IMG/VR virus record: IMGVR_UViG_3300032308_002010
Coordinates: 32,001-96,000 of that record
Length of the DNA: 64,000 nucleotides
Strand: one strand, 5' to 3'
Source: a virus
Shown one piece after another: positions 20,476 to 58,267 of the stretch. Position numbers and translations under genes: made by a program. How positions within the stretch are numbered: position 1 is the stretch's first letter; each line of letters opens with the position of its first letter. Below the pieces are notes generated by a model. The model was not told where the DNA came from. It saw nothing but the letters and a program-made list of their open reading frames with translations, and did not search any database.

Positions 20476-20487
20476 GGCCTCCGTGCC
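20476..20487 (-). promoter_or_regulatory. RBS hairpin GGC-ACGGAG-GCC upstream of the sheath gene (CsrA/RsmE-type fold)
   Basis: SD lies in an ANGGAN hexaloop closed by C-G; 3-bp stem. Confidence 0.5.
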
Positions 20488-23682: not shown

Positions 23683-23714
23683 GTGTACCTCCGTGTAACA
23701 ACTACAGTATAAAC

Positions 23715-26089: not shown

Positions 26090-26103
26090 AGACCTCCGTG
26101 TCT
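26090..26103 (-). promoter_or_regulatory. RBS hairpin AGAC-ACGGAG-GUCU
   Basis: 4-bp stem with an ANGGAN hexaloop containing the SD of the decoration gene. Confidence 0.55.
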
Positions 26104-26565: not shown

Positions 26566-26581
26566 TAAAACCTCCGTGTGA

Positions 26582-46946: not shown

Positions 46947-46976
46947 CGTGATCACCTATTAAAGTTTACCAGTTCA

Positions 46977-49205: not shown

Positions 49206-49240
49206 AGGTTCTCCAGTTTGAGTCAGGAAAAGTTATTTTA

Positions 49241-50068
49241 TCACGTTTGCGGAACGAGCACATACGGGCGGCCGTTAATTATCAGTGTACCGCCGACGTT
49301 AATGCCGGCGTCTTTGGTGAGTGGATACGCTTTCGTGCGTTTGCCATACAGCTTGATAATTTCTGCGATGTCGCCTTCTTGCGGCTTTGTGACGTTTGGG
49401 TCGTAGTAAGGCGCCATCAGATTGCCGGCATTCAAATGCGGCAAACCCAGCGCGTGCCCTAGTTCATGGCAGATGACGGCCACCGCCATGTTGAAGCTCC
49501 AGTCCTCAGCTTCGTCAAACATCTGATCGAGCTGGACGTTTTCTGCAACACCGCACGGCAGCTCACTCCACGCTAGCGTACCGCCTTTGTTATCTAAACC
49601 GCTTTTTTTGCCGGCACCTGACCGCGCATAGATGTTTGCTTTTTTATGCGTTTCAACTCGCACCGGATCAATAGCGCAAACTTCGGCCCACTGAGAAAAC
49701 GCAATGTCGTAAGCCTCGGCGACTTGCGCGTTGGTTAAGCCGGGCAGATGCAGCTCGTGATAGTACGAGATGTTCGGCATCGGCCATTTGCACGGGTCGC
49801 CGTCAGGTGAGGTGATATTGAAGTCGGGCAGACCGCAGCGATGACGATTAATACGATGCGCTGTTTTTGGGCCGACTGTACCGGTCGGATTTAGGCCGTT
49901 GAACTCCTGAAACGTACGAACCGCTTTCTGCAGCTCGGCGCCTTTGATTTTCTTGACTTGCGCCAGCGTTTTGTCGCCGAAATACCCCAGCACGTGGAGC
50001 CGACGTAGAATCTCGCTAATTGGCAAGACATGGGCCGTACTTGGTTGTTTCGCTGGCTTCCGTGCCAT
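49241..50068 (-). CDS. Peptidoglycan-binding domain + matrixin (M10-like) zinc metallopeptidase
   Basis: KAVRTFQEFNGLNPTGTVGPKT (PG_binding_1-like), RCGLPD (cysteine switch), HELGHALGLPH and LMAPYY (metzincin Met-turn). Confidence 0.85.
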   Translation of the reverse strand: MARKPAKQPSTAHVLPISEILRRLHVLGYFGDKTLAQVKKIKGAELQKAVRTFQEFNGLNPTGTVGPKTAHRINRHRCGLPDFNITSPDGDPCKWPMPNISYYHELHLPGLTNAQVAEAYDIAFSQWAEVCAIDPVRVETHKKANIYARSGAGKKSGLDNKGGTLAWSELPCGVAENVQLDQMFDEAEDWSFNMAVAVICHELGHALGLPHLNAGNLMAPYYDPNVTKPQEGDIAEIIKLYGKRTKAYPLTKDAGINVGGTLIINGRPYVLVPQT

Positions 50069-51947: not shown

Positions 51948-52217
51948 TTACCGATTAAGCGCAAATAAGAATTTTACAAACACTAACAACCACGCCAAAA
52001 AACCGCTGATAGCAAAAAAAACAACAACCCCGCTGGCGCCGACAGCGCGACCCAGCTTTTCAATTGGAATGTCTTTCAGCAATCGCCACGCCTTGAGATA
52101 ATCAACGGCGGCCGGCGGACTTGTCGGCGTCGCTGGGGTCGGCGCCGGGTCTGGGTTAGTCGGCTTCTTTTTGCGCCATAAAAACGAATTCAAACTATCG
52201 AGGAGCGAGTTTGCCAT
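51948..52217 (-). CDS. Small membrane protein
   Basis: About 89 aa from MANSLL; C-terminal TM helix. Confidence 0.45.
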   Translation of the reverse strand: MANSLLDSLNSFLWRKKKPTNPDPAPTPATPTSPPAAVDYLKAWRLLKDIPIEKLGRAVGASGVVVFFAISGFLAWLLVFVKFLFALNR

Positions 52218-53661
52218 TTGGTTTCCCCCAGTTTTGAATCGTGTCAAAGATATCATTGCCGTAAAGCTGCGTAGCTTTGTCAAACGTGTTCATTCGCGGT
52301 AGCGTTCCAAGCGCGGCAGCTTGCGCCATCTGATAGCGATAATTTGGATCAAGCGCTGTGCGGTAAATATGCGATTTTTGTCGCGCGGCCAGAATAAAGT
52401 CACCGCGCTGTTTGGCCTTCAACAAGTGATCAGTAACGTTTGCAAACACCGGCTTGTTGTGGTCGTAAACAAACGGCGTACGAAAATCGAGCAGGTTACG
52501 AAACTGCTGCGCGTATACGCTGCCGGTCGCCGCTTTGACCTGCGAGCTAATCACACCGCCGGGAGCATGAAACCGAAACTTTGTCGGCGCGTGTGTGATG
52601 CCTTTGTATTTTGGCTTTGGGTCATCTACGTGCCAGTCTTGCGGCGATTGCGCAATCAGTCGCCGCAGGATTTCGTGCTTGCGGTCATACTCGCGGCGAT
52701 CAGAGTGCGTTTTTGCCGCACGTAGCTCGTCGAGGATGTTGGGTTTCTTTGCCTTGGGCTGTGCTTCTGCGCCCTTCTCTATTTCTTTGATTTTTTCGTA
52801 GTACTGCGGATCTTCGGACAGGTGATCCTTGGCAATTTCTTTGGCAACTTGATCGTCTCTTGTGTGCTCGTGCTCATGTTTAGCTCCTTCGGCTAAAGCA
52901 GGTTCAGAAAAGTCCCGATCGGGTAAATTATCGCCCGCGCCACCCTGTAACAAGTCTTTTTTTACCGTGCGGGAAAGATTTTCGTCCCGGTCGGGTATAT
53001 TGCTGGCGGCTTTGAGTTCTCCCCTACTGACGGGGTTACTAAACCTATGCCCTTCGGCGCTTTCGGCAGGGGTTTCGTAACCCTTGGCTTTGCCGTTATC
53101 GAGCAGTACGCCTTTTCGGCGCGCAGCGACTGTGATGTGAAACGGATGGTCGTCGTTCTGGAGCGCCGATAAACCGTAACTCTTGCGCAGTGCTGATAGG
53201 GCCGGGCTACTTATTTGAATCGCCCAGACTTTGCTTACGCCGTCAACGTTTTTGACGTCAATCTCTTTCAGCCCGCCCAACGTGTAGCCAAACATGTGGC
53301 CGCGCTCATTGATCTTGTCGGCACCGATAGCTGCTACTTCATCGGCATTCATGACCGATATATGCGCATTAACGATGTGAGACTCGACGTTTGGGACGTT
53401 GAACACACCAGCTGTTGGAAGCTCTGCACCCGGCTCGACTAGCGCGTCAAATACGCCGCGCACAAGGGCGTTCGGTACAGATAACAAAAGCCAGCCGGAT
53501 TTGGCGAGGTAGAGGCGGCCGGCAAGGGGATAACTCGTCGCGGCTTGCTTGTTACCGCCGCGGTAAAGCCAACCGAGCGCGTTGCCGGCTGAATAGGCCG
53601 GATGCTCGCGGAAATACTGCGGGTCCCAAGCGAGCGGGTCGAGTGCTGAGAGGCTGTCCAT
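52195..53661 (-). CDS. Multidomain protein: 2H phosphoesterase domain + DUF5661-like domain + unknown modules
   Basis: Two H-x-(S/T)-V motifs (AHISV, FHITV); EGAKHEHEHTRDDQVAKEIAKDHLSEDPQYY is DUF5661-like; modules separated by KQA, KAA, KGA, KAA. Confidence 0.7.
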   Translation of the reverse strand: MDSLSALDPLAWDPQYFREHPAYSAGNALGWLYRGGNKQAATSYPLAGRLYLAKSGWLLLSVPNALVRGVFDALVEPGAELPTAGVFNVPNVESHIVNAHISVMNADEVAAIGADKINERGHMFGYTLGGLKEIDVKNVDGVSKVWAIQISSPALSALRKSYGLSALQNDDHPFHITVAARRKGVLLDNGKAKGYETPAESAEGHRFSNPVSRGELKAASNIPDRDENLSRTVKKDLLQGGAGDNLPDRDFSEPALAEGAKHEHEHTRDDQVAKEIAKDHLSEDPQYYEKIKEIEKGAEAQPKAKKPNILDELRAAKTHSDRREYDRKHEILRRLIAQSPQDWHVDDPKPKYKGITHAPTKFRFHAPGGVISSQVKAATGSVYAQQFRNLLDFRTPFVYDHNKPVFANVTDHLLKAKQRGDFILAARQKSHIYRTALDPNYRYQMAQAAALGTLPRMNTFDKATQLYGNDIFDTIQNWGKPNGKLAPR

Positions 53662-53675
53662 AGCGCGCTTTCAAA

Positions 53676-53747
53676 CTGCCTGAGTAGGACTCGAACCTAC
53701 AACCCCAGCATTAACAGTGCCGTGCACTACCATTGTGCTATCAGGCA
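53676..53747 (-). tRNA. trnN: tRNA-Asn(GUU), CCA not encoded
   Basis: UGCCUGA/UCAGGCA acceptor, GCAC/GUGC D stem, CGGCA-CUGUUAA-UGCUG anticodon arm, GUAGG-UUCGAGU-CCUAC T arm, G discriminator. Confidence 0.92.
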
Positions 53748-53754
53748 AATGATG

Positions 53755-53904
53755 TCACGGGGTCGCGCTAATATTTGGTGTCGGGATGCTTCCCACTGCG
53801 TGATGTGATACCGCAGCCGACGCAGACGCCAACAGCAGCAGGCAAAACACGGCGGAAGCGCCCCACGCGGCTACGCTCAATTGTTTACGGACGGTCATTG
53901 TCAT
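53755..53904 (-). CDS. Possible small hydrophobic peptide
   Basis: 49 aa MTMTVRKQLSVAAWGASAVFCLLLL..., overlapping the end of the holin-like gene. Confidence 0.3.
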   Translation of the reverse strand: MTMTVRKQLSVAAWGASAVFCLLLLASASAAVSHHAVGSIPTPNISATP

Positions 53905-54241
53905 GTTCGTGCTCCAGTTTTTGATCACGCTCGTGCACAATGGTTACTTTGATGCCGGCCCCTGCCAATAGCGATATTGCCAGATCCGTTAAAGTTGAAC
54001 CGCCCATACCTGCTAGCACGCAAATGCCGATCAGGCCGTGGACGTTTTCTGCTTTCCGATAGTTTTGATACCAAATCAGGGCAATGGCGAGGCCGAGAAA
54101 CCCGGCGTTCAGCATGGCACTGACCACAGCTAGTTTAGACAGTTTCTTGGCAAACCGCAAAAGCGTTGCCAGCCCGGCAAACGCCGCCGCACCAAATGCG
54201 CTAGAAAGCACCGACAACGAATGTAATGTTTCGTCGCCCAT
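53885..54241 (-). CDS. Holin-like multi-TM membrane protein
   Basis: 118 aa with three to four hydrophobic helices and a charged C-terminus. Confidence 0.5.
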   Translation of the reverse strand: MGDETLHSLSVLSSAFGAAAFAGLATLLRFAKKLSKLAVVSAMLNAGFLGLAIALIWYQNYRKAENVHGLIGICVLAGMGGSTLTDLAISLLAGAGIKVTIVHERDQKLEHEHDNDRP

Positions 54242-54274
54242 GATTTATAACCGCCTGTCATTGTTAGTGTTATA

Positions 54275-54502
54275 AATTGTGTCAAAAGCCCCTGCGATCC
54301 CCTGTCCGCAGGACCTATCACAGCCGAAGCTGTGATTCTGCAGCAACTTTCAAGGACATATTTTCGTCCCGTGTGGCATTTGCTGCTCCTCCGCCCGTGA
54401 GCCCGACAAAATCTGACCACGGAACCTGTAACCCCCGCGGCATCCCTGCCTTAGAAGCTACGCCTAACCAGCCGACCACCACGGCTAACTTTTGACACAA
54501 TT
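54275..54502 (-). ncRNA. Candidate 228-nt structured ncRNA (RNA1)
   Basis: Intergenic; perfect 14-bp closing helix (54275-54288/54489-54502), C(UUCG)G-capped 8-bp hairpin, GGC-AGGGAU-GCC hairpin and further helices; G-U pairs favour the minus strand. Confidence 0.65.
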
Positions 54503-54578
54503 ACAGTTTAACATGTTCTACGCAGCACAAGAGCATGCCGAATAAAACCGCCGCGACAAATTGTCAAAGAACGCGCAG

Positions 54579-55031
54579 TTAAATGTAGCTCGCGGGAGAA
54601 TTACTGCACAGACCAGCTGGCTCAAATTTCTCGACCCAGCCCGGCAACGTTTCTGGGAGAAACGCAATTGCCCGCGGCGCCAACTCGTGCGGGGCGGGCG
54701 TCCAAATAAATTGCGCGCTTGTCAGTGTGGGAGTAGCGCTGTCAAAAAGCGCATGCGCGCCTACATTGCACAGCGCGTCGAGCGTTTCGCAGTCAAAGCA
54801 GCGCGACCAGACACGCTGCTTAGAGAAAAACCCCGGCGGAGCAATGTTGAACCCGCCGTCAAAAGGCAGTAAAAAACTACCCTGATGAAACACGACGTTT
54901 ACGCACACGTGCCAGCCGGCGTCTAACGTAGCTTTGAGATAAGCCAGCCGATTTTCTTTCTCTGGCTGCGACCCGTGAATGTTACCAAGATTGGCAATTA
55001 AAATACCGTCAAATCGAGTGTGCCGCGCCAT
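54579..55031 (-). CDS. Glycerophosphodiester phosphodiesterase-like protein, catalytic residues degenerate
   Basis: ILIANLGNIHG...ENRLAYLKATLDAGWHV aligns by eye to IAHRGN...ENT..YI..AL..GYDVEID. Confidence 0.5.
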   Translation of the reverse strand: MARHTRFDGILIANLGNIHGSQPEKENRLAYLKATLDAGWHVCVNVVFHQGSFLLPFDGGFNIAPPGFFSKQRVWSRCFDCETLDALCNVGAHALFDSATPTLTSAQFIWTPAPHELAPRAIAFLPETLPGWVEKFEPAGLCSNSPASYI

Positions 55032-55118
55032 ACCTGCTTCCCTGACTTGTTAACAACTGCCACGTTTTTGTATGTGGCGTATCGTACCCGTGACCACGAT
55101 GTGTGTCCACGAGAAGCG

Positions 55119-56153
55119 TCAAAGAATTTTGGCGGCGATTAGGCAGCCACGCGCAACAGCGTGCAGCGGGTCTTTCGCGTGACGAACTTCCTTCACAGGT
55201 AGAGGAAAACCGTTCTCTTCCAACTTCTTGGTGAACATTTCAACGAAGCCTTTAGCGCGCGTAGTGCCGCCAGCTAAAGATATCAGAATCGGTTCTTTGA
55301 ACTTCGGCAGCGCTTTGTGGTCACGAAGCGCAGAGGCGAGCTGCTTTGTTGTGTAATCAATTAGACGCTCGTAATACACGCTCACGGCGGCCAGAATAGC
55401 GTTATCGCCACCGCCTTCGCCGATGACAAACGTGCCGTGCTCTTTCTCAGCTTGCACTACCGAATCCGGCTCATTCGTCGCTACAGCGGTCATGCGATCG
55501 ATCCAGTCACCGGACTTTGTCGTCGAGAATAGCACCGTAGGCTCGCCGTTGAGCATGACGCAGACGTTCACCATGCCGGCACCCCACGACAGGCCGATGC
55601 CGGTGTAATCATCGTGCTCTAGCTCTGAGTAGCACAGCGCCTCGGCTTCGTTAATAGCGCGGGCGGCGTATCCCTGCTCGGCTAACACAGTGCGCACGAC
55701 GTCTTCGTGATACGCCACGTCGAAATCGTCATCCTCTTGGTCGACGGGTTGCGCGGGTACGCAAAAGATAAGCTTTTCATTAGGTTGGCCAGCTGTTCCG
55801 ACCACTTCCTTGAGAATAAACGCCAGCACGCGCTTCGCTTCTTTCTCTTTGGGGCTGACCACGCCACGAAACATGGGGCGTTTGGCCGAGTCGTTGCGCT
55901 CGACAGCCTTCTCGATGGCGTCTTGGCCGAGAATGATAAAGCTCCCGTCAGCGTCCTTGACGAAGACTTTGCCCTGCAGCCCCTTCTCAATCATTTTTGT
56001 AGCTACAGGCGTCGTCGGCTTGATGACGTAAAAAGCGTCGCGAAAGTCTTTGTATTGCACATTGCCAACCACGTGCGGGTCGGTCGTGGAGTTTGCGGCG
56101 GCGTCTTGGGCCAGCACGATAAACGATGTTCCAACGTCGAGACCTTTAGCCAT
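55119..56153 (-). CDS. Actin-like ATPase (MreB/FtsA/MamK superfamily)
   Basis: GLDVGTS (phosphate 1), INEAEA (connect 1), LSWGAGMVN (phosphate 2), LAGGTT (adenosine), VARGCL (connect 2). Confidence 0.85.
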   Translation of the reverse strand: MAKGLDVGTSFIVLAQDAAANSTTDPHVVGNVQYKDFRDAFYVIKPTTPVATKMIEKGLQGKVFVKDADGSFIILGQDAIEKAVERNDSAKRPMFRGVVSPKEKEAKRVLAFILKEVVGTAGQPNEKLIFCVPAQPVDQEDDDFDVAYHEDVVRTVLAEQGYAARAINEAEALCYSELEHDDYTGIGLSWGAGMVNVCVMLNGEPTVLFSTTKSGDWIDRMTAVATNEPDSVVQAEKEHGTFVIGEGGGDNAILAAVSVYYERLIDYTTKQLASALRDHKALPKFKEPILISLAGGTTRAKGFVEMFTKKLEENGFPLPVKEVRHAKDPLHAVARGCLIAAKIL

Positions 56154-57280: not shown

Positions 57281-57505
57281 CTATTTTAACAATTTGTGCG
57301 CGATAGGCGGAACTACCATATATGTAAGCGCGATCGCAATTAACCACAAAATAGAGATTACAACGCGCCGAATACGCATGTTTGTATGCCAATAACGCGC
57401 CCTGATTTCGGCGGGGTCGTGCAGCTGCATAAGTCGCGCGTCGAAAGCAATCCGTTCTTCTTCAGTGCGGATTGGCCGCGGTTCCCAAGGCATATAGCGA
57501 CTCAC
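57281..57505 (-). CDS. Small membrane protein
   Basis: 74 aa with a C-terminal TM helix; ATGA-type overlap with the deaminase gene. Confidence 0.45.
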   Translation of the reverse strand: MSRYMPWEPRPIRTEEERIAFDARLMQLHDPAEIRARYWHTNMRIRRVVISILWLIAIALTYMVVPPIAHKLLK

Positions 57506-57990
57506 ACTTCAATTTGTTTTCCGTCGCGTAACACAAAGACGCCCAGCTTTTCTTCCAGCCGGCGATACACGACACCAGCCTCACGCAGCATCTCGTCGCC
57601 GCGGTCGCAGCTCTCTTGCCACGAACCGTGTGCTGGTACATGCGCGAGCCCGATCACTTCGGTAATCCCCGCGCAGATAATTGCGCGCGCACAATCAGCG
57701 CAGGCAAACCACGGGCAGTACAGCGTGGCGTGCTTTGTCGGCATTCCCATCTTAGCCGCGTGATAAATAACATTACGCTCGGCATGCTCGATGTAGGCGT
57801 ATTTCAGCGGACGCTGCAGCCGCGCATCATTCTTTTTGACGTTAGCTGGCAGGCAGTTGGCGGCAGAGATAATGTCGCCACGCGGCGTCACCAGCACAGC
57901 GCCATTCTGGGTATGAATATCGTCGGCCTGCGTGGTTGCGACGTGGCAGGCAATACGTAGATAAAACAACGGGTCGACAGCGTTTGGCAT
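57502..57990 (-). CDS. dCMP deaminase (cytidine/deoxycytidylate deaminase family)
   Basis: HAERN and PWFACADC zinc motifs; start moved to ATG 57990. Confidence 0.85.
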   Translation of the reverse strand: MPNAVDPLFYLRIACHVATTQADDIHTQNGAVLVTPRGDIISAANCLPANVKKNDARLQRPLKYAYIEHAERNVIYHAAKMGMPTKHATLYCPWFACADCARAIICAGITEVIGLAHVPAHGSWQESCDRGDEMLREAGVVYRRLEEKLGVFVLRDGKQIEV

Positions 57991-58008
57991 AGTTGTAATA
58001 AGACGCGG

Positions 58009-58212
58009 GCTGAATACTGGCAGCAGGACCGCTCGTGTCCCGCTTATGCTCGTGTAACGTTGGGGCGAAGGAGGCGCTTGGAAACGTTTGAAACCCGACA
58101 ACCAGTATTCGGCACCACGGCTAACCAAGTGCAGTGCGAACACCGGGAGGACAACCGGTGTTCTGCGGCGTCACGTCCGGGCTGGCGCAGAACGGACGGG
58201 AGTGATCCGTTC
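58009..58212 (+). ncRNA. Candidate structured ncRNA with GGA-loop hairpins (RNA2); strand uncertain
   Basis: 277-bp intergenic gap containing 12-bp, 9-bp and 7-bp helices; loops AAGGAGG, GAGGACAA, CGGGAGUGA on the plus strand. Confidence 0.5.
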
Positions 58213-58267
58213 GCAGCGCATTCCGGCCACCATGCCGCAACTCTCCCGCATGTATGTATCTGTTGAC

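Follow-up and report, generated by a model that had tools for sequence, protein, structure and literature searches.

What fills the 337-nt gap between two genes of a large lake phage, and what might it do for the gene behind it? The window analysed here, 64,000 nucleotides long, corresponds to bases 32001-96000 of a 193.8-kb IMG/VR virus record (CheckV completeness 95%), and its minus strand carries every sizeable gene. Followed 5' to 3' along that strand, the locus begins with an actin-like ATPase gene (55119-56153; Pfam Volactin, E 3e-62) and a 150-aa gene (54579-55031). The gap comes next, and then a gene for a 118-aa protein with three transmembrane (TM) helices (53885-54241), a small single-TM ORF (53755-53904) that overlaps the end of this gene and is conserved in part of the clade, tRNA-Asn(GUU) (53675-53748), and a 488-aa protein with 2H-SAK phosphoesterase and DUF5661 domains (52195-53661), which is the operon's conserved next large gene. 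The actin-like gene has 271 relatives (related stretches) in IMG/VR; in GenBank phages its sole matches are in two uncultured phages of 485-595 kb, at 32% identity. No close cultured phage was found: in the GenBank phage DNA search the tRNA alone matched, and tblastn with the 118-aa protein gave no match. The runs that hold this stretch of DNA are mostly freshwater or lake metagenomes. The phages that carry the element described below are uncultured, about 200 kb in size, and come from lakes.

In the initial annotation, made from the letters alone, the gap was said to contain a multibranched RNA of 228 nt (here RNA1; 54275-54502), encoded on the minus strand, belonging to no recognised class, and serving either as a free non-coding RNA or as a structured leader for the holin-like gene and the tRNA.

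Conservation, strand and class of RNA1

Homologues were collected by blastn starting from relatives of the actin-like neighbour, and the gap sequence proved to be conserved down to 68% identity. RNA1 is conserved in about 100 viral contigs from at least four lineages; an exact degenerate RNA1 motif is found in 89-94 viral contigs and in 0 of the GTDB species genomes. The element is single copy in each genome, and a covariance model finds it once in that of the window, at 238 bits. Its structure was scored as 60 pairs in eight helices on an alignment (A2) of 53 distinct copies, with controls in which the pairing partners were slid and the phylogeny was kept. A covariance model, R1, was used to realign 67 distinct copies, with the same outcome. 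Among the 53 and 67 distinct homologues, 96.6-96.9% of the cells are paired, versus 34-44% with slid partners. Compensatory changes, on both sides of the pair, are seen in 44 of the 60 pairs (0/500 shuffles).

The minimum free energy of the RNA1 minus strand is -99 kcal/mol, versus -73.4 +/- 4.3 in shuffles (z -5.97, with 0/200 shuffles as good) and -72.9 on the plus strand. G-U pairs are invariant at several positions (for example, U-G in 53/53 copies and G-U in 53/53). Since they would be A-C on the opposite strand, RNA1 must lie on the minus strand. Both the strand and the multibranched structure initially proposed are thus borne out. There are 29 columns that are invariant across all lineages, and about 59 within the window's clade. 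Among the all-lineage invariants are two joiner motifs, GGUUAG of J2/3 and GGnGG of J4/5, and two loop motifs, the GGA of the P3 apical loop and the AGGGGAUC of the P7 loop. When further tertiary pairs were sought by all-against-all column covariation, the signal was swamped by clade structure. RNA1, about 228 bases long, is a genuine RNA with an intricate fold and represents an undescribed family; that fold is among the more complex covariation-supported phage RNA folds outside Rfam. It is next to impossible that the gap holds no RNA element and that a repeat, a fold arising by chance or a gene for a small protein accounts for it. ORFs of 60-72 codons can be drawn over it, but the reading frames are unconserved, with the shortest stop-free run being 15-22 codons in every frame, and the length differences between copies are not multiples of 3. 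The one copy per genome and the overwhelming covariation also speak against it.

With permissive filters and E up to 10, a cmscan search against Rfam 15 gave nothing in 54242-54578, and the same database gave nothing at the RNA1 position of six divergent homologues. This test covers GOLLD, ROOL, OLE, raiA, Y RNA, 6S, SRP, tmRNA, RNase P and riboswitches, and it agrees with the first impression of an unfamiliar class. ARAGORN found no tmRNA. A Y RNA of a Ro60 ribonucleoprotein was rejected, as Ro60 (TROVE, PF05731) and RtcB (PF01139) are absent from this 95%-complete genome and the controls were positive. The early comparison to GOLLD and ROOL has to be abandoned. Those are also large structured RNAs of phages or prophages, sometimes near tRNA genes; however, neither family gives an Rfam match, and RNA1 is less than half their size. 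Moreover, tRNA-Asn is found downstream of RNA1 in only 29 of 57 distinct loci, making it an optional neighbour, whereas the holin gene is obligatory. A variant-specific RNA1 motif had 0 hits in IMG/VR; its one GTDB hit lies antisense to an ABC-ATPase gene in a Chromatiaceae MAG, has no covariance-model score, and was put down to chance.

Architecture of RNA1

RNA1 (54275-54502, minus strand, as are all of its parts) comprises seven helices and a pseudoknot. The helices listed at the outset (P1 with its 14 bp, P2, the P3 apex, P5 and its nested helix, P6 with its UUCG loop, and P7) are all present where they had been placed, while P4, the lower P3 stem and the pseudoknot between L2 and P5 are additions. 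The element is closed by P1, whose 5' strand (54488-54502) pairs with 54275-54289. Fourteen of these base pairs are perfect (54489-54502/54275-54288) and 13/14 show compensatory changes; the helix is 13-15 bp long among the copies, and very stable. P2 (54469-54487) is an AGCCG/CGGCU hairpin capped by the loop L2, UGGUGGU (54475-54481). Its cells are 100% paired, and four of its six pairs are compensatory. The joiner J2/3 (54462-54468), with GGUUAGG, is invariant in all lineages, and leads to P3 (54428-54461), a long hairpin with a variable stem and the apex GGC-AGGGAU-GCC (54439-54450). P3 aligns poorly as a sequence, yet a hairpin of 13-17 bp is present in 53/53 copies, the stems differing and the apex remaining the same. 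Next come P4 (54395-54422), a CCGUG...CACGG hairpin with a conserved GUCAG/GUCG inside, and the joiner J4/5 (54387-54394), GCGGAGGA, in which GGnGG is invariant. P5 (54340-54386; GCAGCAA/UUGCUGC) has internal loops and a nested helix P5a (GGGAC/GUCCU); P5 is 100% paired with compensatory changes in 6/7 pairs, and P5a is 99.6% paired. The P6 hairpin (54317-54336) has a UUCG loop and a fully variable stem, all of it compensatory (8/8 pairs). The last hairpin, P7 (54291-54312; CCUGCG/CGCAGG), has the loop ACAGGGGA (54298-54305), which is within the invariant AGGGGAUC.

The pseudoknot joins the GUGGU of L2 (54475-54479) to GCCAC (54373-54377), which is contained in the 5' internal loop of P5, AUGCCACAC. 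All of its cells are paired (265/265), and 3/5 pairs are compensatory; the consensus is GUGGY in L2 with RCCAC in the P5 loop. In the distant lineages, the same two places pair through other sequences: AGCA/UGCU in L319, GCGUAC/GUACGU in L309, and GGACA/UGUCC in L315. The pseudoknot is therefore preserved with four different sequences in four lineages. The junction is seven-way, purine-rich and invariant. Its seven helices, its seven-way junction and a pseudoknot formed in four different ways make RNA1 a good subject for structural work.

The holin-like gene and its leader

The 118-aa gene always lies directly downstream of RNA1. Its product has three predicted TM helices and a charged C-terminal tail. 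The AlphaFold2 model (mean pLDDT 55.8) contains the three helices only and is too poor for a fold search, and the protein itself has no direct Pfam or PHROG match. Its ESM language-model features are close to those of LydA and holin superfamily III clusters (score 0.90). With a family profile, 305 clusters (50% identity) are reached, and relatives linked in this way (E 1e-20 to 1e-33) have E values of 1e-5 to 1e-8 against PHROG 6384 'holin' and a weak match to PF16083 LydA. By these resemblances the gene is holin-like, of a superfamily III-like kind, and encodes a putative holin.

The start of this gene lies 17-62 nt downstream of RNA1 in 63/63 distinct copies that have enough flanking sequence. 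Reciprocally, RNA1 is found 17-57 nt upstream in 75/75 viral contigs retrieved via the holin-like protein. Fifteen actin loci without RNA1 are all also without the holin-like gene, and four related records, all of them incomplete, are without RNA1, the holin-like gene and csrA. In the distant lineages, RNA1 stands 17-58 nt before a holin homologue (L319/L320 at 90.7 bits, L309 at 41.9 bits, and L315 at 30.4 bits), and the holin homologues of these three lineages match the family profile at E ~1e-21. Four distant homologues (P0126, P0127, P0129 and P0134) have no RNA1 upstream, so the RNA is not general to that holin family. The neighbour on the upstream side is variable, being the 150-aa gene, the actin-like gene, or others.

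An extended -10-like box, TGTTAAACT (54505-54513, minus strand), ends 2 nt before P1, and in most clades a box of the form TGnTA(A/T)A(A/C)T ends 2-8 nt before it. Directly before this promoter element and behind the 150-aa gene there is a terminator-like hairpin predicted by folding (54517-54546, minus strand); other clades have hairpins of different sequence at the equivalent place. The box occurs six times on the window's minus strand, four times between genes, and is likely to be a promoter type that this phage uses repeatedly. Its further intergenic copies on that strand are at 46963-46971, 49235-49243 and 57283-57291.

On the other side of RNA1, an A/U-rich spacer (54242-54274, minus strand) leads to the start codon. 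It has no conserved structure or terminator, and in relatives it is 17-62 nt long and unconserved in both sequence and length. P1 followed by a U-tract was ruled out as a terminator, as a T-run of at least 4 follows P1 in only 23/65 copies, and a consensus scan of the spacer for a conserved terminator was also empty. Searches for pairing of RNA1 with the ribosome-binding site (RBS), for an anti-terminator and for alternative pairing found none.

Traces of the transcript come from Logan contigs only. In a freshwater metatranscriptome, a 164-nt contig of depth 47 is 100% identical to 54299-54462, inside RNA1, with DNA carry-over possible. It is the sole cover of 53600-55100 in its run, and the uncovered remainder is uninformative. 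In relatives, contigs from RNA or RNA-labelled libraries span the 3' part of RNA1 together with the gene; these are contigs rather than reads, and DNA carry-over is again possible. RNA1 adjoins the same gene even in distant lineages, the promoter is flush with it, and a terminator is lacking. All this points the same way, and RNA1 is the promoter-proximal 5' leader of the holin-like operon. Between the two roles initially suggested, that of a holin leader fits best (63/63); the tRNA (29/57) belongs to the module only optionally. A processed free form of RNA1 may exist besides the leader.

A probable link to CsrA

The P3 apex, CA(G/U)GGAUG, matches the CsrA/RsmE consensus CANGGANG; the initial annotation had already listed this apex as a CANGGANG site. 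It is invariant in 51/53 displayed copies (the deviants being L032 and L164), on a stem that varies freely. Along with the P7-loop AGGGGAUC, the GGA of the P3 apical loop is kept in all four lineages. Counted over the whole of RNA1 there are 6 GGA per 228 nt, which is about chance for the base composition. The phage encodes a 96-aa protein of the CsrA family that is extended at its C-terminus (G000:C1:11225-11371, outside the window, minus strand; locus L303:1357-1647; PF02599, 68 bits). Its residues 1-48 align with RsmE (2jpp, solved with such a hairpin) and with other solved CsrA proteins, and it retains the N-terminal MLxLxRK and VRGE motifs. Each of the ten near-complete genomes with RNA1 that were checked has a csrA gene: this one (by PF02599), 5/5 from different RNA1 clades, and four by close homology. 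The gene lies about 75 kb from the holin gene in the genome of the window and, in the independent L315/L316 lineage, 3.4 kb upstream of RNA1 on the same strand. With the same query, a CsrA-like gene is found in only 26 of 50,697 GenBank phage records. Since the ten genomes have a common ancestry, the co-occurrence represents only two independent events. The leader is most likely read by CsrA, given its invariant GGA loops and the occurrence of a rare phage-encoded CsrA in two independent lineages.

We give a probability of about 0.5 to RNA1 being a leader that responds to CsrA and exerts control over the holin-like operon. This proposal builds on the observed fold, strand, promoter-like box, strict 1:1 gene linkage, consensus site and csrA presence, from which we infer both the binding of CsrA and the direction and mechanism of control. 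RNA1 would head an operon starting with the holin-family 3-TM gene and reaching the 2H-SAK phosphoesterase. Its seven-helix pseudoknotted domain displays at least two invariant GGA loops, the CANGGANG of the P3 apex and the AGGGGAUC of the P7 loop, with the GGA-like joiners as further possible sites. These loops would be read by the phage-encoded CsrA-family protein, or by host CsrA, and occupancy of the leader would determine how well the holin-like mRNA is translated or how stable it is, and with this the timing of its expression. If control of the holin gene is true, this would be a new post-transcriptional way to set lysis timing in large phages. RNA1 is a concrete, testable candidate partner for the phage-encoded CsrA, fused to a gene family that normally times host lysis, and it invites the question of how a short-motif binder combines with an elaborate RNA architecture.

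In the window's clade, the Shine-Dalgarno (SD)/start region ACAGGCGGUUAUAAAUCAUG has no GGA, so classical two-site occlusion is not obviously applicable. L309, L315 and the L052 type do have sites resembling CANGGANG close to the SD, and there two-site occlusion could operate. CsrA needs short hairpins only, and thus the 29-59 invariant positions, the pseudoknot and the seven-way junction stay unexplained by it; the invariant junction and pseudoknot look more like a ligand pocket or the core of a ribonucleoprotein (RNP) than a CsrA site.

The nearest known parallels are the CsrA/RsmE-controlled leaders of hcnA, glgC and ColE7 cel, which also have a hairpin-loop GGA matching (A/U)CANGGANG(U/A) in the 5' leader. 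In ColE7 the regulated gene encodes the lysis protein, and CsrA represses cel via the SD and an upstream hairpin loop, the latter being one of two sites (PMC2896534). These leaders are however short and simple, with one site over the SD, whereas RNA1 is a 228-nt seven-helix pseudoknotted domain, lacks a GGA at the SD in the window's clade, and has a CsrA that is phage-encoded. Coliphage PTXU04 also encodes a CsrA homologue, gp28, whose knock-down reduced plaque size, and whose role in the life cycle was untested before that work (PMC11879866). A structured RNA partner is undescribed there, whereas RNA1 is a large folded candidate target.

Across the window, CANGGANG has 35 matches versus 25.7 +/- 4.4 expected, a mild excess partly due to overlap with SD-like GGAG; 28 are on the sense strand and 7 on the other. 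The octamer CACGGAGG, itself a match to CANGGANG, overlaps the SD region of four genes (20478-20485, 23688-23695, 26093-26100 and 26571-26578, minus strand). Such sites are possibly further CsrA targets, or simply strong SD context.

Other readings of the leader

The same GGA loops and csrA co-occurrence would also suit a trans-acting decoy, in which RNA1, perhaps processed from the leader and protected by P1, titrates phage or host CsrA as CsrB or RsmZ do, its position before the holin gene merely coupling its synthesis to that operon. The very stable P1 of 13-15 bp fits this, as does the 164-nt metatranscriptome contig of depth 47 that lies wholly within RNA1, and the four window genes with CANGGANG over their SD could be the targets relieved. 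CsrB, CsrC and RsmX/Y/Z likewise expose several GGA motifs in genomes that encode CsrA. Such sponge RNAs, however, are built from many GGA hairpins, show little further conservation and have their own terminators, whereas RNA1 has no GGA-hairpin array or enrichment, an elaborate and invariant fold, no conserved terminator after P1, and in every case is joined to a single mRNA. Nor would an RNA that acts only in trans need a fixed place 17-62 nt before the same gene in four distant lineages, and we consider a decoy rather unlikely. Control of the holin / 2H-phosphoesterase mRNA could instead be independent of CsrA, with the junction and pseudoknot forming the pocket of a small-molecule riboswitch or ligand-dependent ribozyme. 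RNA1 is indeed a 5'-UTR element flush with a promoter, with the same gene family always next, its purine-rich junction is invariant, its pseudoknot covaries, and its size and complexity resemble those of the cobalamin, lysine or glmS elements. As a precedent, Sudarsan et al. reportedly predicted a c-di-GMP riboswitch in a phage lysis module in 2008. But an expression platform was not found (no conserved terminator, anti-terminator or RBS pairing), P1 is too long and stable for ligand gating, and neither the length nor the sequence of the spacer before the start codon is constant; a riboswitch is thus unlikely.

The junction and pseudoknot might also work together with CsrA. RNA1 would then be a new class of sensor, binding a small signal through these two parts and CsrA on the same leader, for a joint switch-on of the operon. 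Candidates for the signal include nucleotide second messengers of host immunity and metabolites of the infection stage. We hold this dual sensor to be decidedly unlikely; if true, phage lysis or counter-defence would be gated doubly, by a protein and by a ligand, in an arrangement extending from lake phages to the holin-PAS-2H-SAK lineage. Very unlikely, in our estimation, is an RNP scaffold that binds the neighbouring membrane protein, or else an element similar to put or EAR that modifies the RNA polymerase so that it reads through into the long array of co-directional genes. OLE RNA is a large conserved structured RNA that lies directly upstream of the gene for OapA, a small multi-pass membrane protein with which it co-occurs. 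RNA1 resembles it in this placement and in its strict co-occurrence with the adjoining small multi-pass membrane-protein gene. Yet OLE is ~610 nt long, belongs to Firmicutes, and is in Rfam with no match here, and RNA binding by the 3-TM protein of this locus is only conjectural. In favour of an effect on the polymerase, RNA1 comes directly after a promoter and heads some 54 kb of genes on the same strand, with terminator-like hairpins interspersed. Against it, RNA1 resembles OLE, put and EAR in neither sequence nor structure, and the known antiterminator RNAs are much smaller; since several more promoter-like boxes lie downstream, one leader need not serve the whole array.

Related lineages and a second structured element

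In the L315 lineage, the operon runs from the RNA to the holin, a PAS protein and a 2H-SAK protein. There and in L316, the 2H-SAK gene that follows holin-PAS is 167 aa long, which echoes the holin ... 2H-SAK order of the window. The holin-like gene and the 2H phosphoesterase may form one conserved functional module. The L316 locus corresponds to 72007-88766 of contig SDBT01000186.1 in NCBI GCA_004196315.1, and the same arrangement is found on a 139-kb ENA contig. The RNA1-bearing element of L316 also has many sugar-nucleotide, glycosyltransferase, radical-SAM, InPase and methyltransferase genes.

RNA2 (58005-58212) was considered as a possible paralogue of RNA1 and rejected, the covariance model R1 giving no match. 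The two RNAs have a 13-mer in common, apparently by coincidence, since it lies within a stem that is variable in relatives. RNA2 is itself conserved and structured, a second such element, and is located at 58005-58129 on the minus strand, in a gap of 57990-58267. Its 3' half is conserved in relatives down to ~72% identity, and contains a compensatory hairpin in which GCACCAC.../...GUGGUGC becomes, among others, GCGCCGC/GCGGCGC. The wobble pairs of the window's copy favour the minus strand. The 5' part (58130-58267) is less conserved, and has four GGA motifs on that strand.
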